Under the pieces are notes generated by a model. It searched no databases. It was not told where the DNA came from and worked only from the letters and a program-made list of their open reading frames with translations. Positions 13,481 through 63,172 of a DNA stretch of 64,000 nt are shown piece by piece. The stretch's first letter is position 1; each line of letters starts with the position of its first letter. The translations under genes and the position numbers were made by a program. Origin of the DNA: Bdellovibrionales bacterium (GTDB lineage: Bacteria > Bdellovibrionota > Bdellovibrionia > Bdellovibrionales > JAUICD01); the NCBI GenBank assembly GCA_965203875.1, contig OZ241914.1:1358039-1422038 (forward strand), read 5' to 3'.

Positions 13481-13496
13481 CCAACCTAACATTTTT

Positions 13497-13697
13497 TAAT
13501 TTCAGCATGCAACAAAGATAGGTGTAGAGCTGGGGTTTGGTGTATCAGTAGCTATAAACAGCAGCTGTTGGAGCTTACCTTGGACGTTGCACAACATTTT
13601 ATCAAACAATAGCTTAGCTTCACTAAGACCTTTGGTCTGAACATTACGCCAGCTATTATTTGATAAAATTGAAAACCTTTATGATTGAAGACCTTTA
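13497..13697 (-). repeat. SR-1 structured intergenic repeat (one unit plus an extra left flank), minus orientation, abutting the mutase stop codon
   Basis: The reverse complement reads TAAaggtcttcaatcat-aaaggttttcaatttt-atcaaataatagct-[core with agacc-aaa-ggtct]-agctattgtttgat-aaaatgttgtgcaacgtccaagg. The TAA is the stop of 13695..15233. Boundaries are approximate. Confidence 0.8.
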
Positions 13698-15233
13698 GAT
13701 AGTCACAGTTTCTTTGTGCTTGCCAAAAACACTCCTTAACGCATCAGATATTTCACCAAGCGTTAACCCTTCCTCCACAGCCTCAATAAAAACTGGCATT
13801 AAATTACTCTCGTTTTGAGCAGCATTTTTTACCTTTTCCACAGCTTTTGAAACTTTGTTTTTATCTCGAGCTTTCTTAAATCTAACAGTTCTGTCTATCT
13901 GAGCTTTGCTAACCTCACTATCCAATTTCAACGGCTCTATTTTACTAGCACTACTATCAGCATACTTATTAACTCCAACCTGTATAAGATCTCCTTTTTC
14001 TAATGCAGTTTGAGTTTTATAACTGGCATCCTGTATCTCACTCTGGAGCCACCCAGTTTCTATGCATCTAACCACACCACCTAAATTCTTAATCCTTTGA
14101 ATATAGCCTTTGGCCTCTTCTAAAATTTGCGAAGTCATTTTTTCCACCAAGTAAGAACCACCCAAAGGATCTACGTGTTCAGGAATTCCAGTCTCATGTG
14201 CAATAATTTGCTGGGTTCTAAGAGCAGTTGTAGCAGCTAAATCGGTGGGAAGTCCTAACGCCTCATCCATCGAATTGGTATGCAAACTCTGTGTACCACC
14301 CAAAACAGCAGCCATCGCCTGAAGTGCAACTCTGGTCACATTATTCAAAGGTTGCATCGAGGTCAAAGTAGAACCAGCGGTTTGACTATGAAACCTCAAC
14401 TTACAAATATTTTCATCACTAGAACCAAATTCATTTTTTACAGTATTTGCCCACAACACCCTGGCCGCTCTAAACTTTGCTATCTCTTCAAAAAAATTAT
14501 TATGCACGTTGAAGAAAAAACTCATTCTATTTATAAAACCAAGATCAAGGCCAGCCTTTAATGCAGCATCAACATAAGTAATGGCATTTGCAATGGTAAA
14601 CGCCAACTCCTGTACAGCAGTACTACCTGCCTCTCTTATGTGATACCCAGATACACTTATCGTATTCCAGTTAGGTATATTTTTTGAAAACTTAAATATA
14701 TCAGTGATAATTCTAAGACTAGCTTCTGGCGGATAAATATAAGTGCCTCTAGCTATATACTCCTTTAAAATATCGTTTTGTATAGTGCCTTTCAAAGACT
14801 TAATATCTATGCTTCTTTTCTTAGCTACAGCAATGTAAAGAGCAAGCAAAATACCAGCCGTAGCATTGATTGTCATAGAGGTAGAAATCTTATCTAATGG
14901 TATGTCATCAAATAATATCTCCATATCTTGGATAGTGTCTATAGCAACACCTACTCTACCCACCTCACCTGTGGACATTATGTGATCCGAGTCGTAACCC
15001 ATTTGAGTGGGCAAGTCGAATGCAACACTCAAGCCAGTTGCACCTTTTTTTAAAAGATCAAGATAGCGTTTGTTACTACTAGCAGCATCTCCAAACCCAG
15101 AATACTGCCTCATAGTCCAAAGTTTACCACGATACATAGAACTATGTATGCCTCTTAAGTACGGGTACTGGCCTGGCAAACTATCTTTTGTATTTGAATC
15201 CATCTTATCCATATTTAAAGAAGTAAAAAACAC
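13695..15233 (-). CDS. Methylmalonyl-CoA mutase, catalytic (N-terminal, substrate-binding) subunit without a B12-binding domain
   Basis: 512 aa with mutase TIM-barrel signatures ([35 protein letters not shown]). It ends before any cobalamin-binding DxHxxG domain. Confidence 0.9.
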
Positions 15234-20303: not shown

Positions 20304-21893
20304 TTGAAGGTGTATAAATTTTATTTATTGATAGTATTTGTTTTAGGTTCAGCTGGGTTTTTGCATGCTGCAGATCCTAACAAGGAAAATTGCCAAACAG
20401 ACGACAGTGTAATTGTCAATGTAGCTTTGCTTGAAGCTGCAAAAGACGGAGATCTGGATTGTGTCGATAGGTTTACTGAGCCTGATTTTGATGTAAATAT
20501 GACAGGCAAAAGAGGTGAGTACGCAGATAAAACTCCTCTAATGGTTGCTGCTATGTCTGGCAAAATTGAAGTGGTGAGATTTTTGCATGAAAAAAGAGAT
20601 GACCTGGATGTAGATAAAGTTGATGGTGAGGATAAAACCGCTCTATTTTTAGCAGTTGAGGAAGGCCACAGAGAAATAGCTACTTTCCTAGCACCTCTTA
20701 GTGAAGATATAAATAAAAGGTATGGTTCAATAGAAGTTACGGTTCTTCATCATGCCATAGGTAGTGGGGATACCCAGCTTGCTTCTTATTTTCTTGGTAA
20801 TAAAGGCATAGATATCAATGCTCAAAATAAGGATGGGGATACTCCTTTGATGTGGGCTGCTGCTCGTGGTCAGGTAGAAATAGTGCACAAAATTTTAAAT
20901 AATAGAAGTGTCGATATAGGATTAGAGAATAATAGAGGTTTAACAGCTAGATATATGATTAGCACATATAATGTTGAGAGTATGAGAAACAGGCAAGCTA
21001 TATTAGATATGTTTAACCAATATGAAGGTGCGGTGGAAAAATTAGCTGTTGAAGCAGAATTTATAACAGCGGCAAAACAGGGTAACCTATCGAGGGTTCA
21101 GAGTATTTTTGCTGCAAAACAGGCAGAATTCGATATTAACAAAAAAGAATCCTTGGAAGGAAGTACGGCTTTAATATCGGCTATAGCTTGGGAGCGTCCT
21201 AACACAGCTAGATGGTTACTTGCTCAGTCAGGAATAGACGTAAATCTGGCTGATAATAGAGGAAACACTCCTTTAATGCATGCGGTGATAGTTCAGAACG
21301 AGGAATTGTTTTTTGAAATTGTACATAGAGAAGATATTAAAGTACACCACAAAAACCAAGAAGGCTTAGCTGCCATAGATATTGCAGAAAAGAAAAATAA
21401 TTCTAGAATAGTCACATTATTAAGAGACAAAATCGATAGAGATAATGCCAAGTTATTTCGTGCAGTAGAACGTGGTAACGTAGTTTCAATAGCCAATGCA
21501 TTAGACACTGGTATAGATATAAACGCCAGAAAAAATGACGGAGCAGGTAAGACCGCTCTGATTACAGCAGCAGGTTCAAGTTACAGTAAATCAAATACTA
21601 CAGTGCTTAATACCCTGCTTGCAAAATCTGGTATAGATGTAAATAAGCAATCTAATGGAGGTGTTACTCCAATCATGGCTGCGGTGTCGCAAGGTAATGA
21701 GGCAGCGGCAAATATGCTTCTTAGGGTGGAAGGAATAGATCTAAGTTTAAAAAATAACCAAGGTGAGACTGTGTTTGATTTGGCACAAAAGAGTGCAGTG
21801 CCTGGTATAGTTACCGCTTTTGAAGAGAGAAGCCAGAGTAAAGGTTTTAGCTTAAGAGGTGTTAGATCATTTTTCAAAGGGTTGTTTAAGTAA
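20304..21893 (+). CDS. Secreted ankyrin-repeat protein
   Basis: The N-terminus has a signal peptide (LLIVFVLGSAGFLHA/ADP). At least 10 ANK-type repeats follow (e.g. GDTPLMWAAARGQVEIVHKIL, GNTPLMHAVIVQNEELF, GVTPIMAAVSQGNEAAANMLL). The start may be the GTG at 20310, which is better spaced from AAGGAGG than the TTG at 20304. Confidence 0.88.
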   Translation: MKVYKFYLLIVFVLGSAGFLHAADPNKENCQTDDSVIVNVALLEAAKDGDLDCVDRFTEPDFDVNMTGKRGEYADKTPLMVAAMSGKIEVVRFLHEKRDDLDVDKVDGEDKTALFLAVEEGHREIATFLAPLSEDINKRYGSIEVTVLHHAIGSGDTQLASYFLGNKGIDINAQNKDGDTPLMWAAARGQVEIVHKILNNRSVDIGLENNRGLTARYMISTYNVESMRNRQAILDMFNQYEGAVEKLAVEAEFITAAKQGNLSRVQSIFAAKQAEFDINKKESLEGSTALISAIAWERPNTARWLLAQSGIDVNLADNRGNTPLMHAVIVQNEELFFEIVHREDIKVHHKNQEGLAAIDIAEKKNNSRIVTLLRDKIDRDNAKLFRAVERGNVVSIANALDTGIDINARKNDGAGKTALITAAGSSYSKSNTTVLNTLLAKSGIDVNKQSNGGVTPIMAAVSQGNEAAANMLLRVEGIDLSLKNNQGETVFDLAQKSAVPGIVTAFEERSQSKGFSLRGVRSFFKGLFK

Positions 21894-22140
21894 AGGTCTT
21901 CAATTAATAAGGCCCTTCGTTTTTGAATTAAAGGTCTTCAATTCTATCAAATACTTGCTAGTGTAGTGGAAAGACCGGAGGTCTTGTAGCGGAACTAGGC
22001 AAGGATTTGATAGAATGTTGCCCAACGTTCAAGGTATATTACGAAAGCTTTTGTTCATAGCAGAAAGATCAGGCCGAAAGTGGAGCCAAGGGGCATTTAT
22101 TAAAAAAGCCAAAGCAACGTTCAAAGTATATTCCAAACAA
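21891..22140 (+). repeat. SR-1 structured intergenic repeat array (partial flank plus two units), starting on the ankyrin gene's TAA stop
   Basis: TAAaggtcttcaatt at 21891. A full unit spans 21930-22048 (aaaggtcttcaatt / ctatcaaatacttgc / core with aagacc-gga-ggtctt / gcaaggatttgataga / atgttgcccaacgttcaaggtatatt). A second, flank-less unit runs to about 22140. Confidence 0.85.
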
Positions 22141-22170
22141 ATTTTCTAAGATCCAAAGTTTTTAATATAA

Positions 22171-22252
22171 CAAATCTAAGCATAGAGCTTGCCGAGGTAC
22201 GCTGCTCCCCAGAGCAGCTTGAAAGCCTCTCTAAGCTCTATGCTTAGATTTG
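22171..22252. repeat. SR-2 element: a 42-bp conserved core flanked by perfect 20-bp inverted repeats
   Basis: caaatctaagcatagagctt (22171-22190) and aagctctatgcttagatttg (22233-22252) are exact reverse complements. The core is gccgaggtacgctgctc-ccca-gagcagcttgaaagcctctct. Confidence 0.9.
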
Positions 22253-22394
22253 TTTAAACTCTCCCTCTTATAAGCAGTAAATTGTGAATACTTAATACAT
22301 ATAAATACTACATTTTTATAGTGAAATTGAATTTTTTAACTAAATTATAAACAAATATGCTAATATCACTCTCTAAAGAAGCAACACGATATCC

Positions 22395-25298
22395 ATGAAA
22401 CTCAAGTTTATTAGACATATTAAAAAAGCAAGTACTTTTAAGAAAGTTGTTAAGACAAAAGTACTTTTATTTTCTGTAACATCATTTTTTATAACATTTG
22501 GTGTACTTAGTGTTTTTACTTACGCTAAAGCTCAAACTACTTCCTACACAGAGCCTAGCTTGGATGATCTAAGATTAGCTAATAAAGCTGTCTCCTCTTG
22601 CAGAGTCTTACAAGATGTTATTAGTGAAAATAGTCAGGTTGAAGACATCCCAGCTACTAAAGTTTTTGTTGAACTACAAAGAACAGAAGATGGGGATCTT
22701 CTAATAGACGATGAAGCTTGTAGAGAAAGTATTTTAGAGTTTGTTAAAAGTTTATGCACTTCTAGTTCTTCTAAGAACAATCTTTATTGTGAAAGATTAG
22801 GGATTAAGAAAAGTGAAAGTACTTTCGACTCAAATGAAGGTGCTAATACTAGTACTAATGATAATACTAATGGTAATGAAGTTGATCGTATAAGCGACTA
22901 TAAAAAAAGCGATTATAAGAAATTTGGTCAGTCGGCTATAGATAATTTAGGTATAGATCTATCAGACGATATAAGTTTTGAATCAAGTTTAGATGAAAAA
23001 GATCAACGGGAAGAAAGTAAGCTTAAGTTTTTGGCAGCTGGTACATTATTTTCTTTAAGTCCTGTAAAAAAGCTTAGAGTTGCTTCATTCGTTGGTAAGA
23101 ACTTAGCTATTAGAATAAAACCTGTTCTTAACGGAGCATTGTTAGTATTGGCTACCCTAGGTTTATCGTCTTGTAATGATGCTACAGGTCCTGAGCCAGT
23201 TAAACCTCCAACTGTAGTAGATACTCCTTGTACTAGAAGAGAAAGTGGTTATTTTCAATTATCAGGTGCTAATGTTGCTTGTATAAAGCTTCCTACCCTA
23301 ACTTATTCTTTTTTAACTAGCACAGGCGAAGAATCGGATTCTTCAAACGGTGATCCGGACACTACAATAAGAATAAAGTTTGATTCAGAAGTTGTTTTTA
23401 TAGACAACAACGAATGGCAAGAACTAACTCCAGAAAATGTCTTACAAATGCTGGAAATTAAAAAAAATAACACAGAAACTGATCTTACAACCCCAGAAGG
23501 CTCTATAAATCAGGATAACATATCCATAACCACAGAAAGCTCTAATACAGTTATAACTATAAAACCTCCAAATAGTTCTAATGGCAAAATCTATCATGCT
23601 GGGGAGTATTCTATGTTAACCAAAAACTATGCTCCAAAGACAGATGCTTCAAAAGTACAACAAAGTACTAATATAAATACTTATCTTGAAAGTATAAAAG
23701 AAGAATCCTCATTTAGTGTTACTGGCAATAATCCATGTGTTAGAGGCGAAACAGGTTACTTTTATTTTAGAGATTCTAACAACATGGCTAGATGTGAAAA
23801 CCTAATACCTAATATAAGTTATACTTTTAGTAAAAATAATGATCCTCAAGCTATCCTAAACATAAGCTTTGATTCTGATGTTGTGTACATAGACAACAAC
23901 GGTTGGTCTGAAATAGATAACAACAATATTTTAGACATGCTAGCCATCAATCCTGTTGATACTGGTACTGATGTTGATTATACGATTTATACTGGCGATT
24001 TATTAGTAGAAGATGGTCCTATTGATCAGGAACAAATCACCGTAACCAAAACAAATACTGGCATCACCATTGAAATAGATCCTCCTAACACTGGGTTGCA
24101 TTGGCGCAAGGTACATAAAATTGGGTTGTATCAAGCTGGTAACTACATGCTTTCTGCTAGTAATTATATTAGAAGATCAGATATTGATATAGTGATTCAA
24201 AACAACGCACTGGATGATTATCTAGATGCCGCAAAAGGTAGTAGTGGTACAGAGTTTTCTATTGATGCTGTCTCTAACTTATCCTGTGGATCAGAAACAT
24301 TTCAAGGTTATATGCCTACAACATCTATTGAAGACGAACACCAAGAGCCATCTTTTTGTGGAGCCTATGTGCATGAACTTCCACCTGAATTAGCTATAGC
24401 AGCACATCACCATTATCAACCCAGAAGAGCTGATCCTAATACAACCTATGTAATAGATATTGGCTTTGTAATGTCCGAAAGATATTCTACACCTGGTTGG
24501 GATGATTTTATAACGAACCATGTGCTTACTCATGTGAATGATATTTATCAAAGATCAGGAGTTAACGTAGAATTTAGAGCTAAAAGTGTTGTACCTTTTC
24601 AAGATTATAGGCACTATATACGCTGTCAGATTGATGCTCTAGATTTAAATAATAGATATGCTATATCCCGTGTTAATTTTGATTTGATTTCTATAATACG
24701 AAAGAATCATGGAGTTGATCTGATTTATACAATACAAAATTTTGAAGAAGAGACAAGAATTGCTGGGTTTGCTTCTGTTCGATTTAATGATCATTCATTG
24801 GAGGAAGCCAGAATATATGCCACTAGTGGTACGGTAGATCCTGGTTCTCATAACAAAGAAATACCTGACATGTTTGATCAACAGTACAGATTCATACATG
24901 TCCTAACACATGAACTGGGCCATAACCTAGGATTACTTCATAACAAGGAAGATTATGAAACATTCCCTGTTGAGAGCATTTTTCATCCTAAAGGGTATGG
25001 ATATATAGGGTCAGCTAATGCAATAGACGGACAAGCTTTAAGATATGGAACAGTGATGTCGATTCGTATAGACGACGTGCCTTTTTTCAGTGCTAATAAA
25101 GTGGTAACAAAAGAGGAATTATGTATAGACGAAGACAGGTACGACAATAAACTTGGCGGTGGATTTTGTACAGCCAGTTACGATAAACTAGCTGATGAAC
25201 AGCTTCGTTTAGGTGATGAGCAAGCAGACGCTTCGGAGGCTTTGCAGTACACAATAGAGGATGCCTCTAAGTATCACTGTGGTTCAGGATCATGTTAG
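22395..25298 (+). CDS. Multidomain metzincin zinc metalloprotease (reprolysin/ADAM-like catalytic motif) with an internal lipobox-like segment
   Basis: 967 aa. The order is a signal peptide (..FTYAKA/QT), a 4-Cys N-domain, then a hydrophobic stretch ending LATLGLSSC (Cys260). Two modules of about 175 aa follow. The C-terminal domain carries HELGHNLGLLH (HExxHxxGxxH) and a downstream YGTVMS (candidate Met-turn). Confidence 0.85.
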   Translation: MKLKFIRHIKKASTFKKVVKTKVLLFSVTSFFITFGVLSVFTYAKAQTTSYTEPSLDDLRLANKAVSSCRVLQDVISENSQVEDIPATKVFVELQRTEDGDLLIDDEACRESILEFVKSLCTSSSSKNNLYCERLGIKKSESTFDSNEGANTSTNDNTNGNEVDRISDYKKSDYKKFGQSAIDNLGIDLSDDISFESSLDEKDQREESKLKFLAAGTLFSLSPVKKLRVASFVGKNLAIRIKPVLNGALLVLATLGLSSCNDATGPEPVKPPTVVDTPCTRRESGYFQLSGANVACIKLPTLTYSFLTSTGEESDSSNGDPDTTIRIKFDSEVVFIDNNEWQELTPENVLQMLEIKKNNTETDLTTPEGSINQDNISITTESSNTVITIKPPNSSNGKIYHAGEYSMLTKNYAPKTDASKVQQSTNINTYLESIKEESSFSVTGNNPCVRGETGYFYFRDSNNMARCENLIPNISYTFSKNNDPQAILNISFDSDVVYIDNNGWSEIDNNNILDMLAINPVDTGTDVDYTIYTGDLLVEDGPIDQEQITVTKTNTGITIEIDPPNTGLHWRKVHKIGLYQAGNYMLSASNYIRRSDIDIVIQNNALDDYLDAAKGSSGTEFSIDAVSNLSCGSETFQGYMPTTSIEDEHQEPSFCGAYVHELPPELAIAAHHHYQPRRADPNTTYVIDIGFVMSERYSTPGWDDFITNHVLTHVNDIYQRSGVNVEFRAKSVVPFQDYRHYIRCQIDALDLNNRYAISRVNFDLISIIRKNHGVDLIYTIQNFEEETRIAGFASVRFNDHSLEEARIYATSGTVDPGSHNKEIPDMFDQQYRFIHVLTHELGHNLGLLHNKEDYETFPVESIFHPKGYGYIGSANAIDGQALRYGTVMSIRIDDVPFFSANKVVTKEELCIDEDRYDNKLGGGFCTASYDKLADEQLRLGDEQADASEALQYTIEDASKYHCGSGSC
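24909..24941 (+). other. Metzincin zinc-binding motif HELGHNLGLLH
   Basis: Codons cat gaa ctg ggc cat aac cta gga tta ctt cat, read directly from the sequence. Confidence 0.9.
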
Positions 25299-25327: not shown

Positions 25328-28300
25328 CTAATAACAGGTGCCTGTCTGTTGGTGACAACGGTTGTAGTCTGTCCACCAACAGTCACTATTTCTATCACAA
25401 CTAGCAGAAATTCCACAAGTTTTTCTTCCATATGAGATTCCACTATGGCATTGACCTTGGCCTCTACATCTTGTTCCACCTGTGCATCGACCACTTCTGC
25501 AATATGCACCACATGTATTTTTATCATCTGAGTCACAGATTACTCCTCCACTGTAGCAGGTTCCAGCTGCTGTATTATTATGAGTTCTGTATCCACAATT
25601 TTTATTCCCAACTTCACTTCGATAGTTTCTATTAACGTCTTGACAAGTCTCTGGGTCATCAGAATCAGTCCAACAAGTTTTTACACCACACACACTTGTT
25701 GAAGTACTGCCACTACCTTGATTTGTGGTATTTGGATGAGTACTTGGACAAGATACTTCACTTGATGTTTTAGCTACACGTGTACCGCATTGATCAGGAT
25801 TACACTTATAACAATCATTTGGGATGCAGGTAGGACCACTTCCATTCCAGCATGTTTTTACACCACATACTAGCGGTGTTTTTTTAGTACTCTTACAAGT
25901 TTGTTTTGAAGTATATGGATGAGTACTTGGACAAGATACTTCACTTGCTGTTTTAGCTACACGTGTACCGCATTGATCAGGATTACACTTATAACAATCA
26001 TTTGGGATGCAGGTAGGACCGCTTCCATTCCAGCATGTTTTTACACCACATACTCTGGTTGAACGACTATTACAAGTTTGTTGTGAAGTATTTGGATGAG
26101 TACTTGGACAAGATACTTCACGTGCTGTTTTAGCTACACAACTGTTACCACTACATTTTTGACAAGGATTGCAATCACACCGGGGAGGATCTACACAACT
26201 ACCACTTCCATTACAAACTTTGCCACCAGTACATTTGCTAGTTGGTGATCCACATCCATCAGAAGGACATTTCTTGCATGCATTTCTATCTTCAGTAGTT
26301 AAAGTACAAGGTGTCCCATTATTACAGCTTCCATTCACACAGAGGTTACATGTACCAGTACAATCTGAGGGTCCGCTACACTGAGGAGGATCTACACACC
26401 TACCACTTCCATTACAAATTTTGTTAAGAGCAATGCATCTATTAGTTGGTGAACCACATCCGTTAGAAGGACATACCATACAATTATTAGTGTCTGCTGT
26501 GCAGTAATCGGTACCTCCACGATAGCAAGTTTCTGGGTCAGGGTCTGGGTCAGATAATGTGCTGTCATCGTTACCAGTGCTATCATCTACGCCGCTATCA
26601 TCACCAGTATTTCCACCGCCTCCAGTGGATTTACACTTGTAACAATATGTATCGCATACACCGATAGCTTCAGGAGTTTTACCATCATCAGTACAGGCTG
26701 ATGAACTACTTTCTTTATGAGTAGGATGATTTGAGCAGTTTACAGCTTGAGCTATGCACTTACCTCCAACACACTCTTGGCAGGAGTTACAATCTGAAGG
26801 ACCACTACAGGAATGTTGACTTACACATCGATCTGCCAGACTTGTATCTGCTGAACAAACTTTTCCAAGTGCTGCACAAGCAGCATTATCGCAGGCACAA
26901 CCATTATTTACGCAAATATTACCAGGATTACAGCAAATAGCATTATTACGACAACTAGCATGATTAGCTGGACATTCACAACGGCCAGTAGCACTATTAC
27001 ACCTCTGAATACCAGTGCATGTTACCCCAGCACATGGATCCGTTGTAGTAGTCGTAGAGAAAATAAGTGCATCTTCTTGAGGCGATGGAGAGTAGTTACC
27101 ATACTCGTCCACTAACCTAAGCTCTATACTATACTCAATACTAGAATCAGGTGCAGGCAACTCAGTAAATCTTAAATGTAACTCCCTATCTTTACTACGA
27201 TCACCACCTTCAGGATCACTAGGATCACTCGCATATAGCTGGGCAGTCACAGGATGTGTATCATCACCAATAGTAAAGGAACTACCAGATAAATCATCAC
27301 ATAAAAACCAATCTCCAACTGGATGATCTATACCACTAATCTTTTTGTTCAAACGACATAAAAATACTCCCTTACTAAAACTGGAATTTAAACAATATCC
27401 TGCATCATTACCATCTGGACACCTATAACCCCTATCCCATACACGACCTTCTAGCTTAAACCTACATGTCGTAGAATTATCAGAATTTGTAGTACATTGA
27501 AGGGTAGTGGTCGTTGTTGAAGTTGATGAACTGTCTGAAGAATCAGCCTCAGAATTAGACACAGAAGATAGAGATATTGTAGATGGATTATGCTTATTAT
27601 TAGCTTTATTAGCCAGATTACTAACTAAGTTGTTACTAACTAACTTGTTGTTATTAGCTTTGCTACTAACTAACTTGTTGTTATTTTTGTTACTAGCTAA
27701 ATTAGCTTGAAAGCTATTATCAGGTGGTTGAGTCGTAGTAACTGAAGTAGTCTTTACTATTGTCTTATTGCGTGCTGTTACATACCTCTGAGAATAAGAA
27801 AATACCTTCTCAGCTCTGCATCTGATAGGATCATAACTAGATACTGCCTTCCTCTCCTCAACCTCCACAAATAACTTAAATCCAAGATCATGACGAATAT
27901 TAGCCTCAGGCAAACCTGATAAACTAGAAGCAAGCTTATAACCTAACTTACTCTTATCTGAATTCTCAGGTTTATCATAAACAGAACGAGGACGAACAAA
28001 AATAGGATGTATAGCCTTACTCTTATGCCTGTTACAACTATCTGTCTTCTCATTCTTGCTTATATCCCAAGGCCTTATACCAATACGAACATCATACTTA
28101 GACTTAGCTATGTAATTACTTACAGGAGTATAACTACTCACAGGCTCAACTGGACCAAAGGATAAGGACGATATATCAGATAAACGCTCACTTAACAAAA
28201 ATAACGACTCTCCGGTCAACCTATCCCACTTATATCCATCTGAAGATGAACCATTGTTGTCTGCTAGCCCTTGATGAGCTGTCCGTTTATCTTCATCCTT

Positions 28301-28510
28301 AAGCTTACGATATTTATTAGGATTCTCTTCAACCCACTTGTCTAAATCACCTAACTTTATCAAAGGAGCAGAAGACTCATGAGACTTAAACTCCATCTTC
28401 ACTAGATCAAAAGTCAAAGCTGAACTGTTACTAATTTGAGCATCTGATGGACATATAGAAATAGGATTAGTAGAAGATGTCTTTAAATACTTATTATACA
28501 AGTCCTCCAA
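25328..28510 (-). CDS. Giant Cys-rich / EGF-like repeat surface protein body, probably the 3' part of a phase-variable fusion with the pilin-like ORF upstream
   Basis: The ORF-track start is a TTG with no signal peptide. The same frame is actually open from 28684, so it runs through the G13 tract. The C-terminal 560 aa are dominated by Cys-rich modules (DPCAGVTCTGIQRCNSATGRCEC; CPSxGCGSPTxxC..CNGSGxCVDPPxC; three copies of VAKTxxEVSCPSTHP..CGVKTCWNGSGPTCIPNDCYKCNPDQCGTR). Confidence 0.8.
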   Translation of the reverse strand: MEDLYNKYLKTSSTNPISICPSDAQISNSSALTFDLVKMEFKSHESSAPLIKLGDLDKWVEENPNKYRKLKDEDKRTAHQGLADNNGSSSDGYKWDRLTGESLFLLSERLSDISSLSFGPVEPVSSYTPVSNYIAKSKYDVRIGIRPWDISKNEKTDSCNRHKSKAIHPIFVRPRSVYDKPENSDKSKLGYKLASSLSGLPEANIRHDLGFKLFVEVEERKAVSSYDPIRCRAEKVFSYSQRYVTARNKTIVKTTSVTTTQPPDNSFQANLASNKNNNKLVSSKANNNKLVSNNLVSNLANKANNKHNPSTISLSSVSNSEADSSDSSSTSTTTTTLQCTTNSDNSTTCRFKLEGRVWDRGYRCPDGNDAGYCLNSSFSKGVFLCRLNKKISGIDHPVGDWFLCDDLSGSSFTIGDDTHPVTAQLYASDPSDPEGGDRSKDRELHLRFTELPAPDSSIEYSIELRLVDEYGNYSPSPQEDALIFSTTTTTDPCAGVTCTGIQRCNSATGRCECPANHASCRNNAICCNPGNICVNNGCACDNAACAALGKVCSADTSLADRCVSQHSCSGPSDCNSCQECVGGKCIAQAVNCSNHPTHKESSSSACTDDGKTPEAIGVCDTYCYKCKSTGGGGNTGDDSGVDDSTGNDDSTLSDPDPDPETCYRGGTDYCTADTNNCMVCPSNGCGSPTNRCIALNKICNGSGRCVDPPQCSGPSDCTGTCNLCVNGSCNNGTPCTLTTEDRNACKKCPSDGCGSPTSKCTGGKVCNGSGSCVDPPRCDCNPCQKCSGNSCVAKTAREVSCPSTHPNTSQQTCNSRSTRVCGVKTCWNGSGPTCIPNDCYKCNPDQCGTRVAKTASEVSCPSTHPYTSKQTCKSTKKTPLVCGVKTCWNGSGPTCIPNDCYKCNPDQCGTRVAKTSSEVSCPSTHPNTTNQGSGSTSTSVCGVKTCWTDSDDPETCQDVNRNYRSEVGNKNCGYRTHNNTAAGTCYSGGVICDSDDKNTCGAYCRSGRCTGGTRCRGQGQCHSGISYGRKTCGISASCDRNSDCWWTDYNRCHQQTGTCY
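25690..26150 (-). repeat. In-gene tandem repeat, period 183/177 bp, about 3 copies
   Basis: tacttggacaagatacttcac recurs at 25741, 25924 and 26101. Copies 1 and 2 are nearly identical over more than 120 bp (ttttagctacacgtgtaccgcattgatcaggattacacttataacaatcatttgggatgcaggtaggacc...). Boundaries are approximate. Confidence 0.9.
27596..27705 (-). repeat. Short in-gene tandem / low-complexity repeat encoding N/K/L/V/S-rich peptide
   Basis: ctaactaacttgttgttatt occurs twice among related ttagc/ttact units. The encoded peptide is NNNKLVSSKANNNKLVSNNLVSNLANKANNK. Confidence 0.7.
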
Positions 28511-28598: not shown

Positions 28599-28889
28599 TT
28601 ATGACCAATCTTGCTTAAATTTTGGTCGCCCCCCCCCCCCCAAATTTTGGGTAGTAGAGGTAGTAGAAACAGTAGATATAGTAGCTACTTCTTTCTTAGG
28701 AGAAACCTTACTGCCATTCTTAGAAAAATGAGCCAATACATTACCAGCTACAGATGAACACATATAAGTATCATGCTTCCTCTGAGTTAAAGTCATCATA
28801 TTAGCCGACATAAACGTAACCACAAAACCTGTAGCTGATACCAACGCCAATCCTATCAATGTCTCCAACATCGTAAATCCCCCAGTCTT
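28599..28889 (-). CDS. Prepilin-type N-terminal (cleavage/methylation-like) domain ORF, truncated by frame at a G13 tract
   Basis: It encodes ..KTGGFTMLETLIGLALVSATGFVV.., a close match to the type IV pilin/pseudopilin G/FTLxE plus hydrophobic-helix signature. The only canonical start nearby is the ATG at 28871 (the M of FTMLE), preceded by GGGGGA. No start exists for a normal short leader. The ORF stops 8 codons after the G tract. Confidence 0.6.
   Translation of the reverse strand, partial: KTGGFTMLETLIGLALVSATGFVVTFMSANMMTLTQRKHDTYMCSSVAGNVLAHFSKNGSKVSPKKEVATISTVSTTSTTQNLGGGGRPKFKQDWS
28629..28641 (-). repeat. Homopolymeric tract: C13 on the plus strand, G13 on the coding strand
   Basis: Counted directly: ...ggtcg cc cccccccccc c aaatt... 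It sits exactly at the junction of the two overlapping reading frames. Confidence 0.95.
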
Positions 28890-29222
28890 GCGACTGGACG
28901 CATTTGCTGGCTTACAGCCAGCCGCTTGAACAAAAGCTAACAGTAAACTACGAAAACCTATTGTTCGATAACAACTTTCAGTTGGAGGCTTTTGCAACCT
29001 AACGGCTGCAGAACTTCGGAGTAACCAAGTTTTTCGTGATTCACATAAGCTTTTGAACCATCCATGGCGACTGGACGCATTTGCTGGCCAACCTACGGTT
29101 GGATCAGTTTGCTGGCCTTCGGCCAGCCTCTTAAACGAAAAATTAACTTGCGACTGCGGAGCTTTATAAAAACCAACCTTCGGCCCAATCAATCTGCCGG
29201 CTTTCAGCCGGCCCTTTAAAAG
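28890..29222. repeat. SR-3 cluster of REP-like short GC-rich hairpins
   Basis: gcgactggacgcatttgctgg occurs twice (28890, 29066). Hairpins present are gctggct-tac-agccagc, ccaacc-tac-ggttgg, gctggcc-ttc-ggccagc and gccggc-tttc-agccggc. The same family is found at 63706-63906. Confidence 0.85.
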
Positions 29223-29485
29223 AAAAGTATTTTTAAAACGAATAAATAAAGATCTTAAAAAAAACAAAATAAAAACCTAAAACTTAAAACCAAACTTACC
29301 AAACTCTAAATTCTACGACAAAAAACCCTTTTCACAAAGAAAAACAAAACTAAGTCCAGAAAAATACCCCTCACACACATATAAATTATCACATTGAGAC
29401 AGTACCTTCTGATACAGTACCTTTCATTTACAAAAAGGTAACCACGACATATTAAGCAGACTAAAATATGCAAGCTACAACAATA

Positions 29486-29565: not shown

Positions 29566-29601
29566 GTTCTAGTAATAAACTTCCAAAAAATTTTTTGGAG
29601 T

Positions 29602-41482: not shown

Positions 41483-42484
41483 GTGTCAAACATAAATGTA
41501 GATCTTGATAAATATAAATTGGATTGCATAATAGGTCAAAGCCTTCCTATTATGAAAGTCATGCAACTCATAGACAGGGTTGCATCTTCATGTGCAAATG
41601 TACTAATCACAGGCGAAAGTGGAACAGGAAAGGAGTTGGTAGCTCAAGCACTTCATTACAATTCCGAACGATCCAAGGAACCATTGATAGCAATAAACTG
41701 CACCGCAATACCATCGGAGCTATTAGAAAGTGAATTGTTTGGACATGTAAAAGGTGCATTTACTGGTGCTACATCTGATAGAGTGGGTAGATTTGAAAAA
41801 GCAAAGAGGGGCACAATATTTCTAGACGAAATAGGGGACATGAGTCCTAGCCTACAGGCCAAACTGCTGAGAGTTTTGCAGGATAGAAAATTTGAACCAG
41901 TTGGTGATAGTAGGCCAAGACAATTTAATGCAAGGGTAATAACGGCTACAAATATAGATCTAGAGCGTGCGATAAAAGAAAATAGATTTAGAAGGGATTT
42001 ATATTATAGGCTAAATGTCATACCAATAAAAATGCCCTCTCTAAGAGAACGACCATCAGATATACCCATATTAACACATTATTTTTTAAAAATATTTACA
42101 AGACAAAATCACAAACAAATAAATGGAATTAGCAAAAGTGCTATGGATCAACTGTGTGCGTATCCTTGGCCTGGAAATATAAGGGAGTTAGAAAACTTAA
42201 TAGAACGATTGGTCATCATAAAAGATCATGGATTAATTGAATTAGCTGATATACCTGCAAAATACATAACCAACCAAAAAGTAAATCCAGATGATAAATT
42301 GCTAACTTATGTTCCTAACTCAGGGATAGATCTTAATGAAGCAATTGCTAGGTATGAAAATATGCTTTTGGTGGATGCTCTAAATAAGGTAAATTGGAAT
42401 AAGAACAGAGCAGCCAGCTTACTAAAATTGAACAGAACCACCTTGGTAGAAAAGATCAAAAGAAAAAAGTTGAAGCAAGTTTAA
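41483..42484 (+). CDS. Sigma-54-dependent transcriptional activator (AAA+ and HTH only, no sensory/receiver domain)
   Basis: GESGTGKELVAQALH (Walker A), the GAFTGA loop (KGAFTGA), an RFRRDLYYRL arginine-finger region and a C-terminal Fis-type HTH (NKNRAASLLKLNRTTL). The AAA+ core starts about 15 aa from the N-terminus. Confidence 0.9.
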   Translation: MSNINVDLDKYKLDCIIGQSLPIMKVMQLIDRVASSCANVLITGESGTGKELVAQALHYNSERSKEPLIAINCTAIPSELLESELFGHVKGAFTGATSDRVGRFEKAKRGTIFLDEIGDMSPSLQAKLLRVLQDRKFEPVGDSRPRQFNARVITATNIDLERAIKENRFRRDLYYRLNVIPIKMPSLRERPSDIPILTHYFLKIFTRQNHKQINGISKSAMDQLCAYPWPGNIRELENLIERLVIIKDHGLIELADIPAKYITNQKVNPDDKLLTYVPNSGIDLNEAIARYENMLLVDALNKVNWNKNRAASLLKLNRTTLVEKIKRKKLKQV

Positions 42485-42722
42485 AGGTTTTCAATTTTTA
42501 ATAAGTGTACATAGCGAAACGGCCCGACTGTAGGTCAAAGTGTAGCTATGTATACTTATTAAAAATGTTTACCAGCTCTCAAGGTATACTCCAAAATATT
42601 TGCTAAAGGTCTTCAATTTTATCTAATATTTGATTAGCAAAGCGGTAAGCCAGAAAGCTTAAAGCGTAGCTAAGAAAATATTTGATAAAAAGTTGTGCAA
42701 CGTTCAAGGTATATTCCAAAAG
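42482..42722 (+). repeat. SR-1 structured intergenic repeat, two tandem units, starting on the activator's TAA stop
   Basis: Unit 1 (42482-42596): TAAaggttttcaattttt / aataagtgtacatagc / core / gctatgtatacttatt / aaaaatgtttaccagctctcaaggtatactcc. Unit 2 (42604-42722): aaaggtcttcaatttt / atctaatatttgattagc / core with taagc-cagaaa-gctta / gctaagaaaatatttgat / aaaaagttgtgcaacgttcaaggtatattcc. Confidence 0.9.
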
Positions 42723-42752
42723 ATTCACATAAAGCCTTTAAAATTCTCATCT

Positions 42753-52381: not shown

Positions 52382-53521
52382 ATGTTTTCTAACAAGCAAA
52401 AATTAGTTTTTATTGTGGTAACAGCCTTGGTTGTTGGTGTGATTGGTATGATTTTTTCTAGCGGAAGAGATAAAGAAGAATATGACGACAAAAGATATTT
52501 AGGAGCCTTAGGTAAAAGAACAAATAGAGATAATACTGTTTGGTTAAATAAAGCTATCTCATTTAAAAAAACAACCAGAGAAACAGAGCCTGAAATTATC
52601 GAAGAACAACCAGAACTTAAGCCAGAACCTAAAAAAAAAGAAGCTAAGAAAGATAAGAAAAAAGCAAAAAAAAATGCCAAGAAAAAAGACGCTGAAAAGA
52701 AAGGGCCAGTAATGGTAAGAATGGGTGGTGGTCCGGTAGGTGAGGGTGCACAATCTCAGGACAACACAGGTGCAGTGGCTAATGAGGATTCTCCAGCCAA
52801 TAATCCTGTTCCAGCTGCTCCCTATGCTGCAACAGGAGGTGGTATTATGGATCCTGCTGCCACAGACAACTCCATGGGTTTTGGTAATCCGACCAACAAT
52901 CCGGATTATTGGACTAGCGTATTGATGGATTCACCATCATTAAGTAATTTGGAAAAATTAGTAGATGCATACAGATCCAACAGTATATCCGATGCCACTT
53001 TTTATTCGGTAGTATCGAACATGTTAGAAGATGACAATAGGCTTGTCAGACACTACGGGCTTTTGAGTTTATCCAGAACCCCAAGTGCAAGAAGCTTTAG
53101 AGAACTGGTAGAATTTAAAAATAATTCTCAGTATGAGGGTGCAACCAGTAAAGTAGATAGATCTCTAAAGTTATACACTCTATATAGACATGCCAACGTG
53201 GTGAACACAGTACTAGAAGATGAAGATGCTAATGTAAAATTGGAGGCTATAAAAATTGGAAAAGAGTCGGCCGAAAGAAGCCTGGCATCTGTAGATGATA
53301 CTTCTAAACCGGAAGAAGAACCAGAGTCTGTAGATAATATGGGAAGACCTGTAAGAGAACTTAGCAGCGTGAAAGCAGCTATAGATCCTGCCATATACGA
53401 AGAAATTGCGATTAAGATAGAAAGCATTTCTAGATCAGAACAGGATACACAAATTATAAACTCTGCTCAGGATGCACACAGCTCAATCAACAAATTGTTA
53501 GAGCAATACAAGGAAGAATAA
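52382..53521 (+). CDS. Hypothetical membrane-anchored protein with a Lys-rich low-complexity region
   Basis: N-terminal TM helix (LVFIVVTALVVGVIGMIF) and a KKKEAKKDKKKAKKNAKKK tract. The C-terminal half is possibly helical-repeat. Confidence 0.5.
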   Translation: MFSNKQKLVFIVVTALVVGVIGMIFSSGRDKEEYDDKRYLGALGKRTNRDNTVWLNKAISFKKTTRETEPEIIEEQPELKPEPKKKEAKKDKKKAKKNAKKKDAEKKGPVMVRMGGGPVGEGAQSQDNTGAVANEDSPANNPVPAAPYAATGGGIMDPAATDNSMGFGNPTNNPDYWTSVLMDSPSLSNLEKLVDAYRSNSISDATFYSVVSNMLEDDNRLVRHYGLLSLSRTPSARSFRELVEFKNNSQYEGATSKVDRSLKLYTLYRHANVVNTVLEDEDANVKLEAIKIGKESAERSLASVDDTSKPEEEPESVDNMGRPVRELSSVKAAIDPAIYEEIAIKIESISRSEQDTQIINSAQDAHSSINKLLEQYKEE

Positions 53522-53600
53522 AAGTCTTCATTTTCAAATGACTCGAAGGCTCCGCTTCAAGTCTCACACTCATCTTTGTTGCATATGAGGTATCAGTTTT
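53519..53600 (+). repeat. Degenerate SR-1-like fragment starting on the TAA stop of 52382..53521
   Basis: TAAaagtcttcatttt... The tail ...catctttgttgcat also occurs at the distal end of the 13.5-kb copy. Weakly conserved. Confidence 0.5.
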
Positions 53601-53631
53601 TTTAAGGCTTCCAGGTTGAAACAAAGCCATC

Positions 53632-60499: not shown

Positions 60500-61186
60500 G
60501 TGAAAAAGTCAGGCGGTAAGAGAATAAGGAATTTGAAAAGCAAGTTGGAGTATAAGCCTCATCCTGTGGCCAAAGCTTTGGACATCGTTTTATCTTCGTC
60601 TAATACTAAATTTGATGAGTCTATAGATGTTGCTGTTCGTTTGGGTATAGATGTGAAAAATCCAGAGCATCAAGCCAGAGGTTCTGCTATTTTGCCGCAC
60701 GGTTTGGGCAAAAATATAAAATTATTGGTGATTGCTAAAGGTGAGAAAGTTTTGGAGGCTAAGAACGCTGGAGCTGATCATGTGGGTTCTGACGACATGA
60801 TTGATAAGATTAAAAATTCCTGGCTTGATTTTGATAAAATAATCGCAACTCCGGATATGATGGCATCTGTATCCAAGGTGGCTAAGATATTGGGACCTAA
60901 GGGTCTTATGCCAAACCCGAAAGTTGGTACCGTAACTTTTGATTTAGAAAAGACTATTAAGGCGGAAAAAAAGGGAAAGTTAAGTTTTAAATCTGACAAA
61001 TCTGGGATAGTGCATGGAGCGTTTGGAAAAAAGAGTATGGGTAAGGAAGCTCTGGAAGAAAATTTGCTTAGCTTCTTGGGTACTCTTCATAGAGGAAAAC
61101 CTTCTAATAGCAAGGGTGTGTACTTTAAGTCGGTAACTTTATCTTCTACAATGGGCCCTGGTGTACCTGTCGAGTATAAAGGTTAA
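60500..61186 (+). CDS. rplA: 50S ribosomal protein L1
   Basis: 228 aa with FDESIDVAVRLGID and GPKGLMPNPKVGTVT. Confidence 0.95.
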   Translation: MKKSGGKRIRNLKSKLEYKPHPVAKALDIVLSSSNTKFDESIDVAVRLGIDVKNPEHQARGSAILPHGLGKNIKLLVIAKGEKVLEAKNAGADHVGSDDMIDKIKNSWLDFDKIIATPDMMASVSKVAKILGPKGLMPNPKVGTVTFDLEKTIKAEKKGKLSFKSDKSGIVHGAFGKKSMGKEALEENLLSFLGTLHRGKPSNSKGVYFKSVTLSSTMGPGVPVEYKG

Positions 61187-61292
61187 AGATCTTCAATTTT
61201 ATCAAATGTTTGATTAGTGCAGCGGCAAGCCGTAAGGCCTAGAGCGTAGCTAGGAGAATATTAGAGCGCAGCTCTCAAGGTAGATTATAAAA
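61184..61292 (+). repeat. SR-1 unit (partly decayed) starting on the rplA TAA stop
   Basis: TAAagatcttcaatttt / atcaaatgtttgattag / core with gcc-gtaa-ggc ...agagcgtagc / decayed 3' arm / cagctctcaaggtagatt. Confidence 0.8.
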
Positions 61293-61376
61293 GAATTGTC
61301 TAAGGCCTCAAAGTTTTTGATAAGCACACACAGCAGCTTACCGTTTCAATTAGACAAACATCAGAATTACAAATTC

Positions 61377-62714: not shown

Positions 62715-63061
62715 AAGGTCTAATCAAGAATTTGACAAAAGAAAACCCTTAGGGCATCTTTTTAGAATATACTTTGAGAACTGGTAAACATTTTATCAAA
62801 CAATAGCCTAGCTTCACTTTCGGCCTTTGGCCTTTCGCTACGCTTTAAGACAATGCTTTTATAGTGTACCTTGAACGAACGTTGCTTTGGCACTTTTAAT
62901 AAGCACACACTAGCTCCACTTTGACCTACGGTCGGGTCGTTATGCTCTGAACAAAAGCTTTCGGAATATACTTTGAACGTTGCACAAGGCCACAGCCTTT
63001 CAGAGCAGCAAAGCCACTCTTGCAGGCTGCGGCTCAAGGGCCTGATAATTGAAAACCCTTA
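62715..63061 (-). repeat. SR-1 array (about 3 units, rearranged), minus orientation, downstream of hsp20
   Basis: The reverse complement contains aagggttttcaatt..., three right flanks (caacgttcaaagtatattcc, caacgttcgttcaaggtacac, cagttctcaaagtatattc) and cores with gacc..ggtc and ggcc-aaa-ggcc. Confidence 0.8.
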
Positions 63062-63118
63062 ATCTTTAGACAAAAATCCAGAGCAATTCCAACACTAAAA
63101 TCCTGACTTTAAAGATAT

Positions 63119-63162
63119 AAACAAACAAGATAAGCAAAGGAGTTTTAAAGCTCCCTTGCTTA
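63119..63162 (-). terminator. Intrinsic terminator of hsp20
   Basis: 12-bp stem taagcaaaggag / ctcccttgctta (one G-U pair) with an 8-nt loop, followed on the minus strand by a T-rich run (tcttgtttgttt). Confidence 0.65.
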
Positions 63163-63172
63163 CCAAAAGTGT

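Follow-up and report, generated by a model that had tools for sequence, protein, structure and literature searches.

A modular, hairpin-bearing repeat family whose arrays start on stop codons in an uncultured relative of Bdellovibrio

The 64,000-nucleotide stretch of DNA analysed here (the window) comes from an uncultured, small-genome relative of Bdellovibrio and carries six loci of SR-1, a small family of modular, hairpin-bearing repeats; BLAST and a hairpin covariance model returned no further loci in it. At five of the six, the repeat begins on the TAA stop codon of the gene upstream. These genes encode an ankyrin-repeat protein, a sigma-54 activator, ribosomal protein L1 (rplA), a hypothetical protein and a methylmalonyl-CoA-mutase-family large subunit, a domain assignment that rules out a reading of the last gene as a phosphoglycerate mutase. 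The sixth locus lies downstream of hsp20. SR-1 is not a single element; it is a head-to-tail array of ~123-nt units, each made up of a 15-nt boundary motif, L (TAAAGGTCTTCAATT, with the dyad core AAGRYCTT), a hairpin of 65-75 nt whose stem covaries and whose GNA/GNA internal loop is conserved, and a linker, C, of ~35 nt. L stands between all cassettes and, in degenerate form, at the array ends. The upstream ORFs, the arrays and their modules are located as follows.

20304..21893, plus strand: ORF of the ankyrin-repeat protein (Pfam)
21891..22166, plus strand: ankyrin array, starting on the stop at a tandem junction
21891-21905, plus strand: L, its TAA being the stop; 21906-21928, L2 variant AATAAGGCCCTTCGTTTTTGAAT; 21929-21943, L
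21942-22015, plus strand: hairpin; 22016-22048, C; 22049-22105, degenerate hairpin; 22108-22146, C
22147-22166, plus strand: terminal degenerate L, TAAGATCCAAAGTTTTTAAT
41483..42484, plus strand: ORF of the sigma-54 activator (Pfam)
42482..42745, plus strand: s54 array, two full units, after the sigma-54 activator
42482-42496, plus strand: L of unit 1, its TAA being the stop; 42496-42564, hairpin; 42566-42603, C
42604-42618, plus strand: L of unit 2; 42617-42690, hairpin; 42691-42729, C
42730-42745, plus strand: terminal L-like motif TAAAGCCTTTAAAATT
42753-42755: stop of the convergent hemF-like gene that faces the s54 array
60500..61186, plus strand: ORF of ribosomal protein L1, rplA (Pfam)
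61184..61376, plus strand: rplA array, after rplA
61184-61198, plus strand: L, TAAAGATCTTCAATT, its TAA being the stop; 61197-61270, hairpin; 61266-61300, C
61301-61319, plus strand: terminal L-like motif TAAGGCCTCAAAGTTTTTG, then decayed sequence as far as the convergent gene's stop (61377)
52382..53521, plus strand: hypothetical ORF without a Pfam hit
53519..53631, plus strand: hyp array, degenerate, after the hypothetical gene
53519-53534, plus strand: L, its TAA being the stop; 53563-53590, module D; 53603-53617, L-like motif TAAGGCTTCCAGGTT
13695..15233, minus strand: ORF of the methylmalonyl-CoA-mutase-family large subunit (Pfam)
13481..13697, minus strand: mutase array, after the mutase gene
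13697-13683, minus strand: L, its TAA being the stop; 13681-13667, second L; 13668-13597, hairpin
13596-13561, minus strand: C; 13529-13502, module D
62736..63068, minus strand: hsp20 array, downstream of hsp20, off the stop codon
63068-63047, minus strand: double L start TAAAGATTAAGGGTTTTCAATT; 63046-62987, atypical GC-rich hairpin; 62986-62957, C
62956-62894, minus strand: hairpin; 62891-62849, C; 62853-62791, partial hairpin; 62790-62752, C
62751-62736, minus strand: terminal L-like motif
63129..63164, minus strand: terminator-like hairpin (14-bp stem and T-rich tail) between the hsp20 stop and the array

The mutase array occupies the entire gap to the stop of the convergent rpsT (13478-13480), and the hyp array extends to the stop of its convergent gene (53632). 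In the hyp array the covariance model found no canonical hairpin; module D is common to this locus and the mutase locus. The core of L is also found as the alternative perfect palindromes AAGGCCTT and AAGATCTT. At the ankyrin locus, L and L2 together form a terminator-like mini-hairpin (21895-21914, GGTCTT/AAGGCC and then CTTCGTTTTT), the only terminator-like fit within SR-1 arrays; the end previously assigned to this locus, 22140, falls within the array, which extends to 22166.

The preliminary description had placed the start of the repeat on five stop codons, and the placement holds: the ORFs that it named all end in frame on these five TAA triplets, and L directly follows each. Across 14 aligned copies of L, internal ones included, homology begins exactly at the T of TAA and the three preceding bases are variable, and thus the TAA is intrinsic to the SR-1 repeat. 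The terminal L-like motifs likewise open with TAA. As had been claimed, the five upstream flanks share nothing. The copy after the hypothetical gene, said to be degenerate, is so in the window (TAAAAGTCTTCATTTT), but is canonical in strain E (TAAAGGCCTTCATTTT). Co-orientation with the upstream gene is found at all five loci, yet because it is implied by the shared TAA it adds no independent evidence. The sixth array was correctly placed past the hsp20 terminator, running from 63068 to 62736 on the minus strand after the hairpin with the 14-bp stem. A reading of L as a general post-stop signal was rejected, as L is absent from all other 48 genes. GC skew, which we looked at for a replication-direction explanation of array orientation, tracks gene strand in the window.

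In the hairpin alignment 86.7% of cells were paired, compared to at most 33% in slid controls, and double changes occurred in 9/22 and 8/11 pairs. The sense strand folds more stably in 14 of the 15 hairpins, the unpaired A and G residues of the core (A8, G11, A31, G34 and A36) are invariant, and the GNA/GNA internal loop is kept across two genera. Where the hairpin directly follows L (s54 in both strains; rplA), the base of the stem lies 10-12 nt past the stop, just outside the footprint of a ribosome on the stop codon. The main hairpins carry a T-run 5' and an A-run 3'; a role as intrinsic terminators was ruled out, since the T-run is on the wrong (5') side and a terminator scan called none of them. 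Scans of module C and L for sigma-70 promoters showed no excess over shuffles, with a single 10/12 match, antisense, at the rplA array, and this reading was also rejected.

We compared the window with two more strains of its species (E, with the 1.24-Mb contig ERZ25067941, and S3) and with relatives including L130 and L131, the only two returned by a search with a 411-aa protein; L130 is distant, at 57% amino acid identity. Strains ~99% identical differ by whole cassettes at four loci (s54, ankyrin, rplA and hsp20), with the left breakpoint within L or directly after it, and the right-hand breakpoints within hairpins or C, not at L. Strain E is longer by about 230 nt at the ankyrin locus, carries different hairpin cassettes between identical flanks at the s54 locus, and is nearly identical to the window in the mutase array. 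At rplA, a solo L on the stop is all that strains E and S3 keep: TAA-AGGTCT(C/T)CAATTTT plus 18 nt only. At hsp20, strain E has a single unit and S3 has the window version, identical over about 300 nt despite flanking genes that are 2-5% diverged, which points to exchange of this array by recombination. SNP density is raised within 1 kb of arrays.

Stop abutment was also found in the two further strains. As a rule, however, it describes five of the six window loci and is not absolute outside the window. Strain E has an extra array between divergent genes that abuts a start codon, and neither of its two flanking L copies matches the ‘empty’ allele. Among the homologous units of L130, one starts 3 nt after a stop and others lie after a terminator and in a divergent junction or promoter region; one unit is anti-oriented to both neighbours. 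L is conserved in L130, where the hairpin differs markedly in its outer and apical parts. Homologous units were absent from the L131 DNA examined.

Comparison of gene 3' ends, as had been advised, gave no sign that the repeat shortened its host genes. The sigma-54 activator ends at the same residue in two element-free relatives, with TAG or TAA, and L1 and the mutase have no detectable truncation; on the evidence of these three genes, host-gene truncation by SR-1 was rejected. Among the strains and relatives compared, we found no recent, clean insertion whose empty site was unchanged, the filled-versus-empty comparisons gave no target-site duplication, and called genes and Pfam hits in ~90 kb from three strains included no transposase or recombinase candidate. 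A search with the ankyrin protein returned no paralogue from the same genome. The C-module pattern CARYKYTCAARGTAKAYTMYRAANNNNT, too narrow for the diverged L130 homologue, gave one match in a genome collection, two in a metagenome collection and none in a viral collection, all three being chance matches, and the 15-mer of L in viral contigs gave only chance matches among the matches listed. An Rfam scan of the window at gathering score returned three tRNAs only; SR-1 matches no family, the best sub-threshold score on an array being 24 bits against thresholds of ~100. SR-1 is a lineage-restricted, non-coding and previously undescribed repeat family.

The closest analogues of SR-1 are the BIME and NIME mosaic repeats, a resemblance missed in the preliminary description along with the modular array architecture, the solo-L ‘empty’ site and the strain-level turnover; SR-1 is a member of neither. 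NIMEs are non-coding arrays in which a short dyad-symmetric delimiter, dRS3, separates variable RS cassettes of 50-150 bp; their positions are conserved and their content is strain-variable, flanking genes have elevated variation, and they have been proposed as recombination substrates (PMC1797815). SR-1 resembles them in that L delimits its cassettes with the dyad AAGRYCTT, its content is strain-variable and SNPs are more frequent within 1 kb. However, its delimiter TAAAGGTCTTCAATT is unrelated to dRS3 (ATTCCC-N8-GGGAAT), opens with TAA and doubles as a stop codon; it has one structured hairpin family plus a linker, compared to the >100 RS families of NIMEs; its units are strictly head to tail; and its host belongs to a different phylum. 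REP/BIME sequences are imperfect palindromes outside genes whose stems show compensatory changes; they form modular clusters at the 3' ends of genes, with extensive length polymorphism between strains and species-specific sequence (PMC2817692). The palindromes of SR-1 are similarly extragenic, covarying, modular at 3' ends and strain-variable. BIME REPs alternate in orientation, whereas the hairpins of each SR-1 array are all on one strand, two to three times longer than REPs, furnished with internal loops and without a GTAG-type head. No RAYT (Y1 transposase)-like gene was found among the called genes and Pfam hits in ~90 kb from three strains.

SR-1 is also like small structured multi-copy non-coding elements able to lend stop codons or UTR structure to their neighbours. 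It differs from MITEs in having no terminal inverted repeats or target-site duplication, its ends being direct L or L-like repeats, and in forming tandem arrays; the apparent pairing of the s54 array ends stems from the palindromic core of L and fails to generalise, and a TIR/MITE reading was rejected. MIRUs, as Supply et al. reportedly described them in 1997, are tandem units of strain-variable number, co-oriented with flanking genes, and a unit's end overlaps the upstream gene's stop codon; they are said to lie inside operons, with small ORFs through which translation is coupled to the following gene. SR-1 units are tandem, strain-variable and co-oriented too, and start on the upstream stop, but they have no ORF, L provides no start codon at the stop, and convergent genes flank four of the five arrays that abut a stop. 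Integron attC sites are strand-specific imperfect hairpins of 60-140 nt, placed directly after reading frames and often overlapping the stop, with the core boxes R''/R' (RYYYAAC ... GTTRRRY) at the hairpin base. SR-1 shares strand-specific hairpins after frames and cassette-wise gain and loss beside a fixed site. Its outer stems, however, are TTTTATCAAATA...TATTTGATAAAA or TTTTTAATAA...TTATTAAAAA and not RYYYAAC/GTTRRRY, no ORF lies between its hairpins, and its arrays are scattered beside housekeeping genes, with no integrase seen in the ~90 kb.

Arrays occupy four of the nine convergent junctions and 2 of the 47 others (Fisher p = 0.004), an enrichment that bears out the earlier suggestion of selection on position; the five unoccupied convergent spacers measure -57, 29, 9, -59 and 6 nt. 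For a random non-coding start position, the probability of at least five stop-abutting loci in six is 4e-9. If the repeat start is placed on any tolerated TAA (247 intergenic TAA, either strand, and 33 TAA stops) it is 1.2e-4, and without junction conditioning the TAA-site values range from 1.2e-4 to 3.9e-4. Under TAA-directed entry, a start at a convergent junction would coincide with a stop with probability 0.78, and one at a tandem junction with probability 0.16; with junction type taken into account in this way, P(>=5/7) is 0.12. Thus, junction type combined with a TAA-directed start makes the abutment unsurprising. The refuting case named in the preliminary description, a small-sample coincidence, is scarcely credible, as is an ORF-calling artefact: the window has just six loci and ORF ends are mechanical calls, but P(>=5/6) is 1.2e-4 or less, Pfam domains and conserved C-termini mark the ORFs as real genes, and the same abutment recurs in two further strains. 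For the window, this reading is effectively refuted.

We tentatively favour, at somewhat less than an even chance, the explanation that a TAA-headed repeat in near-spacer-free convergent gaps accounts for the abutment without stop-reading machinery. Units would enter, or be copied, with the TAA of L placed on a target TAA, either by integrating at TAA or where TAA microhomology lets a junction form, and the strand of the target TAA would set their orientation. Promoters and operon spacers would make up most of the intergenic DNA in this compact genome, and insertions would survive only at the 3' ends of genes, above all convergent ones. With a native convergent spacer of 0-29 nt, the two stop codons would be almost the sole tolerated TAA triplets, so that the array would start on the stop and its own TAA would now act as the stop. 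Once placed, the array would be transcribed by read-through as the 3' UTR of the gene, and arrays would change fast by recombination among conserved modules of different copies and strains, while L would remain fixed as their left anchor. Entry directed by TAA, filtering by selection, array transcription and any benefit to the host are what we infer from a sample of seven loci in one species and five units in one relative (L130). Against this model stand the want of a clean recent insertion, the altered L copies at the divergent locus of strain E and the absence of a transposase or recombinase candidate from the ~90 kb. The ankyrin array is also on a stop at a tandem junction, where this is only ~0.16 probable, and L persists on the stop at sites that have otherwise decayed or lost their array (hyp; rplA in E and S3). 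Selection could act on L itself at these sites, something the model has no need of. Of the earlier proposal that the element supplies or recognises the stop, ‘supplies’ is supported by the intrinsic TAA and the native C-terminal position, and nothing supports ‘recognises’, given the off-stop and anti-oriented copies.

Function, not insertion mode, may instead keep the array near the stop. As a co-transcribed 3'-UTR RNA module it would protect mRNA 3' ends, bind a protein or insulate terminator-less convergent units, and selection would keep it next to the stop, up to the limit set by the terminating ribosome; we regard this reading as possible, though doubtful. The covarying hairpin, its sense-strand bias (14/15) and the invariant unpaired A/G and GNA/GNA loop kept across two genera are consistent with it, as are a stem base 10-12 nt past the stop at rplA and, in both strains, at s54, occupied convergent junctions that otherwise have no terminator (hsp20 has its own, with the array beyond it) and an L kept on the stop even after cassette loss. 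Yet shifts of a few nucleotides should then be harmless, whereas five arrays have an offset of exactly 0; promoter regions harbour arrays as well, and some arrays are antisense; free swapping of content between strains fits gene-specific regulation poorly; and the strand asymmetry equally fits a transposase recognising single-stranded DNA. The co-transcribed 3'-UTR module envisaged earlier is plausible from its covarying, sense-strand hairpin and invariant unpaired purines; its main hairpins are not terminator-shaped. Strain turnover brings in an unlikely alternative in which L is a site-specific recombination site, like integron attI/attC or Neisseria dRS3. A conserved recombinase or nuclease would act at the dyad AAGRYCTT, hairpin-plus-C cassettes would enter, leave and be exchanged directly on the 3' side of a resident L, and the stop position would merely reflect where resident L sites lie. 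The solo L at an otherwise empty site, left breakpoints that all fall in or just after L, an L that separates all cassettes and closes arrays, the perfect palindromes AAGGCCTT/AAGATCTT in its core, and its conservation at 57% amino acid identity while the outer and apical hairpin differs would all fit. However, this leaves a resident L on stop codons unexplained, the right breakpoints inside hairpins or C resemble homologous recombination, R'/R''-type attC boxes are absent and no recombinase gene was seen (~90 kb, three strains).

Dedicated recognition of stop codons or translation-termination sites, with targeting to the end of a reading frame as such, is in our view very unlikely. It would accommodate an in-frame offset of 0 at 5/7 loci, the P of about 1e-4 against all tolerated TAA sites, the ankyrin case at a long tandem junction and the L130 unit that begins 3 nt past a stop. 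The improbability vanishes, however, once junction type is counted, copies are found at a start codon, in a promoter region, past terminators and antisense, and a DNA-level process would have to read frame; we know of no such process. A wider proposal, itself quite improbable, is that SR-1 units would be mobile 3'-UTR cassettes with their own stop, installed at frame ends by a system conserved in at least two genera. A protein would recognise L and the GNA/GNA hairpin on one strand, and the fixed 10-12-nt linker would position an RNA hairpin able to bind a protein right at the margin of the terminating ribosome, tuning termination, mRNA decay or convergent insulation.

SR-1 extends the short list of mosaic intergenic arrays (BIME, NIME) with a structurally well-defined family from an uncultured lineage. 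Its first triplet is the stop codon of the host gene, and compaction together with insertion specificity can mimic ‘frame-aware’ behaviour. Since cassettes differ among ~99% identical strains, the arrays are useful as strain markers and are possible recombination hot spots. The hairpin core, covarying, strand-specific and conserved across genera, is a candidate ligand for some protein. If placement on the stop is actively targeted or functionally required, SR-1 would be a new kind of mobile 3'-UTR module.

SR-1, a family of hairpin-bearing repeats, was reported in the preliminary description to begin on the TAA stop codons of five unrelated genes: an ankyrin gene, a sigma-54 activator, rplA (ribosomal protein L1), the hypothetical gene 52382..53521 and a mutase gene. 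All five TAA triplets are in frame, the genes are real, and AAGGTCTTCAATT or a close variant lies directly 3' of each. The sixth locus was also placed correctly, in that a terminator-like hairpin of hsp20 precedes the array. Short-word BLAST and a hairpin covariance model confined SR-1 to these six loci within the window. If arrays could start at any tolerated TAA (247 intergenic and 33 stop codons), the probability that at least five of six would start on stops is 1.2e-4, and for random non-coding placement of array starts it is 4e-9; the statistics are based on seven loci from a single species plus five units from a single relative. The abutment is real and non-random. Co-orientation with the upstream gene is seen at the five stop-sharing loci, but it is no independent evidence there, since repeat and gene must lie on one strand if they share a TAA.

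Each array is built of ~123-nt units with three parts (L, hairpin and C), as follows.

Parts of the SR-1 unit
L: consensus TAAAGGTCTTCAATT, with the 8-bp dyad AAGRYCTT as its core
L2: AAGGCCCTTCGTTTTT, a variant of L, in tandem with L
Hairpin: 65-75 nt, its A/T-rich outer stem being of two or three sequence types
C: ~35-nt linker, ..GTTGYSCAACGTTCAAGGTATATTMC..

Perfectly palindromic versions of L are AAGGCCTT (hypothetical-gene locus, strain E) and AAGATCTT (rplA). Arrays end 3' in a degenerate L such as TAAGGCCTCAAAGTTTTT, and an extra module, D, is common to the hypothetical-gene and mutase loci. The conserved hairpin core reads UAGC - GNA - 2 bp - apical stem-loop - 2 bp - GNA - GCUA. Double changes, at 9 of 22 pairs over the full hairpin and at 8 of 11 in a core alignment that includes the relative, show covariation of the stems; in the core alignment 86.7% of cells are paired, against at most 33% with slid partners, and none of 500 shuffles scored as high as the real alignment. 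Six unpaired positions are invariant. The sense fold is more stable than the antisense fold in 14 of 15 hairpins, by a mean of ~5 kcal/mol. The main hairpins are not terminator-shaped, having the T-run 5' and the A-run 3'; at the ankyrin locus, L and L2 give a small terminator-like hairpin. No Rfam family matches SR-1.

In 14 aligned copies of L, six of them internal to arrays, homology begins exactly at the T of the TAA, and the three preceding bases are variable. By this alignment, therefore, the TAA is part of the repeat. The possibility that the host genes had been truncated was not borne out: the sigma-54 activator ends at the same residue in element-free relatives (TAG in one, TAA in the other), and for L1 and the mutase the alignment with solved homologues stops no more than a few residues short of the homologues' ends.

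The window (G+C 36%) is part of a contig of 1,600,901 bp from an uncultured bacterium, whose sigma-54 activator has its best named relatives among the Bdellovibrionales. We compared it with two strains of the same species, E (ENA ERZ25067941, a 1.24-Mb contig; loci L001, L004 and L128) and S3 (ERZ25070167, locus L129), and with the relatives L002 and L003 (83% amino acid identity in the sigma-54 activator), L130 (57% in a nucleotidyl-transferase) and L131. Strain E is 98.6-99.7% identical to the window and ~99.8% identical to S3; over 57-64 kb, the window strain is 2-5% diverged from E and S3 alike.

Strain E carries a seventh locus between divergent genes. This array borders directly on the start codon of the minus-strand gene, whose GAAGGA ribosome-binding site comes from L2 in reverse complement; all that S3 has at this position is an L-like relic. 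The L130 units are homologous to SR-1, with L (AAAGGTCTTC), the same GAA/GUA hairpin core, a C carrying the blocks GTTGCCCA, AGGTATA and TACGA, and an L-to-L distance of 123 nt. They are placed as follows.

Positions of the units in L130
One unit: convergent junction, 3 nt past the TAA stop of a co-oriented gene
Two units: divergent junction, one of the two ending on a start codon
One unit: after a terminator-like hairpin
One unit: anti-oriented to both neighbours

Units are absent from L002, L003 and L131 (60 kb scanned), and scans of sequence collections found no further copies. Because L130 has copies and the other relatives are empty, SR-1 is, on these comparisons, older than the species, patchily distributed and not bound in principle to stop codons.

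Why, then, stop codons here? Arrays occupy 4 of 9 convergent junctions versus 2 of 47 other junctions in the window (Fisher p = 0.004); the five empty convergent junctions have spacers of -57, 29, 9, -59 and 6 nt. With spacers this short, hardly any TAA other than the two stop codons can be hit without destroying a gene. In a simulation, elements entered at TAA triplets and took the orientation of the triplet hit; spacer lengths, the density of intergenic TAA and stop-codon usage were those observed. The simulated probability that the start is a stop was 0.78 at convergent, 0.16 at tandem and 0 at divergent junctions, and that of at least five of seven starts on stops was 0.12. In this model, an element whose 5' end is TAA, laid on a target TAA, and a restriction to compact 3' junctions would be enough for the pattern, and a mechanism that reads frame would be unnecessary. 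Comparisons of strains and relatives revealed no clean insertion or target duplication, and ~90 kb from three strains no mobilising enzyme.

The arrays differ between strains. At the sigma-54 activator locus, the window and E have different cassettes between identical flanks; E has ~230 nt extra at the ankyrin locus, and one unit at hsp20, as against roughly three and a half in the window and in S3. At rplA, E and S3 lack the cassette, and the stop codon still carries a solo L (GGT TAA AGGTCT(C/T)CAATTTT), followed after 18 nt by the convergent gene's stop. Left breakpoints of all differences lie within or immediately after L, and right breakpoints inside the hairpin core or at the hairpin/C boundary. 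Since the S3 hsp20 array equals that of the window over ~300 nt despite E-like flanking genes that are 2-5% diverged from the window, sequence comparison indicates that array segments are exchanged by recombination. Up to 1 kb from an array, the window and E differ at an SNP density of 2.7-4.5%, versus 0.8% elsewhere (3-5x), a difference confounded by fast-evolving neighbour genes. Divergence between the two is also mosaic (0.27% over 31.7-41.5 kb, 2-5% over 57-64 kb), which, with the raised SNP density, suggests a recombining population, with arrays possibly near recombination breakpoints.

Other repeats and variable segments lie in the same region. A perfect 42-nt direct repeat (55759-55800 and 57745-57786), whose first copy begins in the last 6 nt of tRNA-Ser(gct) (55672-55764), flanks a 1.9-kb segment with an N6/N4 DNA methyltransferase gene (ORF 55913-57001); E and S3 have other methyltransferase genes there (408 aa; 465 aa with an Mrr-like domain). 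The segment resembles a small integrated islet that is bounded by att-like repeats and swapped between strains. Nearby, ORF 57896-59032 could easily be mistaken for tuf, since it precedes secE-nusG-rplK-rplA, but its Pfam match is to a patatin-like phospholipase; its true start is probably later than called, because the called GTG overlaps tRNA-Arg 57834-57910. A second hairpin family, unrelated to SR-1 (arms 26-29 bp), occurs at 22169-22254, directly after the ankyrin array and followed by TTTGTTTAAA, and at 29486-29578, among short, doubtful ORF calls only. Another family, TTTGCTGGCTTACAGCCAGCC..., has four copies at 28903-29225 and 63708-63912, with a 46-nt segment common to 28972-29017 and 63708-63753; ORF 28599..29267, covering three copies, may not be a real gene. 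Two ORFs that adjoin SR-1 arrays, a reprolysin-like one of 967 aa (22395-25298) and one of 411 aa (61377-62612), are paralogues (33% identity over 327 aa) with homologues in two other assemblies only; both are unusually divergent from strain to strain (in part of the former, DNA identity is 88%; the latter has 35 window-specific differences in 1.27 kb). Tandem repeats of period 177-183 nt at 25666-26139 in ORF 25328..28510 (1060 aa) indicate a putative repetitive protein. Between the sigma-54 activator and a hemF-like gene, relatives have three to five extra genes (L002 11013-15731, L003 11131-13670), which encode ankyrin-repeat proteins and, for L002, also a DNA methyltransferase. At this junction (42485-42752) the SR-1 array is all that the window has. 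Another short repeat of intergenic regions, ...AAGTGGACTTGTT...GCCTCATTAGGCTCAYCTTTAA, is common to the relatives and contains a terminator-like hairpin; one L003 copy lies just downstream of the sigma-54 activator, the position of SR-1 in the window.

Copies of the relatives' repeat
L003: 9650-9846 and 11055-11104
L130: 8006-8047 and 19356-19397
L002: 9663-9692

The nearest architecture to SR-1 is that of the NIMEs of Neisseria, in which a dyad delimits variable cassettes in strain-variable arrays proposed as recombination substrates (PMC1797815); their delimiter, however, is unlike L in sequence. BIME/REP clusters (PMC2817692) are also near in architecture, but SR-1 units are all direct, and no RAYT gene, the BIME/REP partner, was seen in ~90 kb from three strains. 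Membership in either was rejected on the delimiter sequence and the all-direct units, and the tests that define a MITE, an attC site, a MIRU or an intrinsic terminator excluded these as well. We assign SR-1 to the mosaic intergenic repeat arrays, with a boundary motif that doubles as stop codon as its unusual trait.

Together with the covariation and the invariant purines of the loops, the strand asymmetry speaks for recognition of the hairpin on a single strand. The recognised form could be RNA, within the upstream gene's 3' UTR, or single-stranded DNA, the partner then being a transposase-like enzyme. Where L directly precedes the hairpin, the base of the stem lies 10-12 nt past the stop, which puts it narrowly outside a ribosome that is terminating there. 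In E. coli, REPs no more than 15 nt from a stop reportedly affect translation. SR-1 may plausibly stabilise mRNA 3' ends, or insulate from each other convergent genes that have no terminators.
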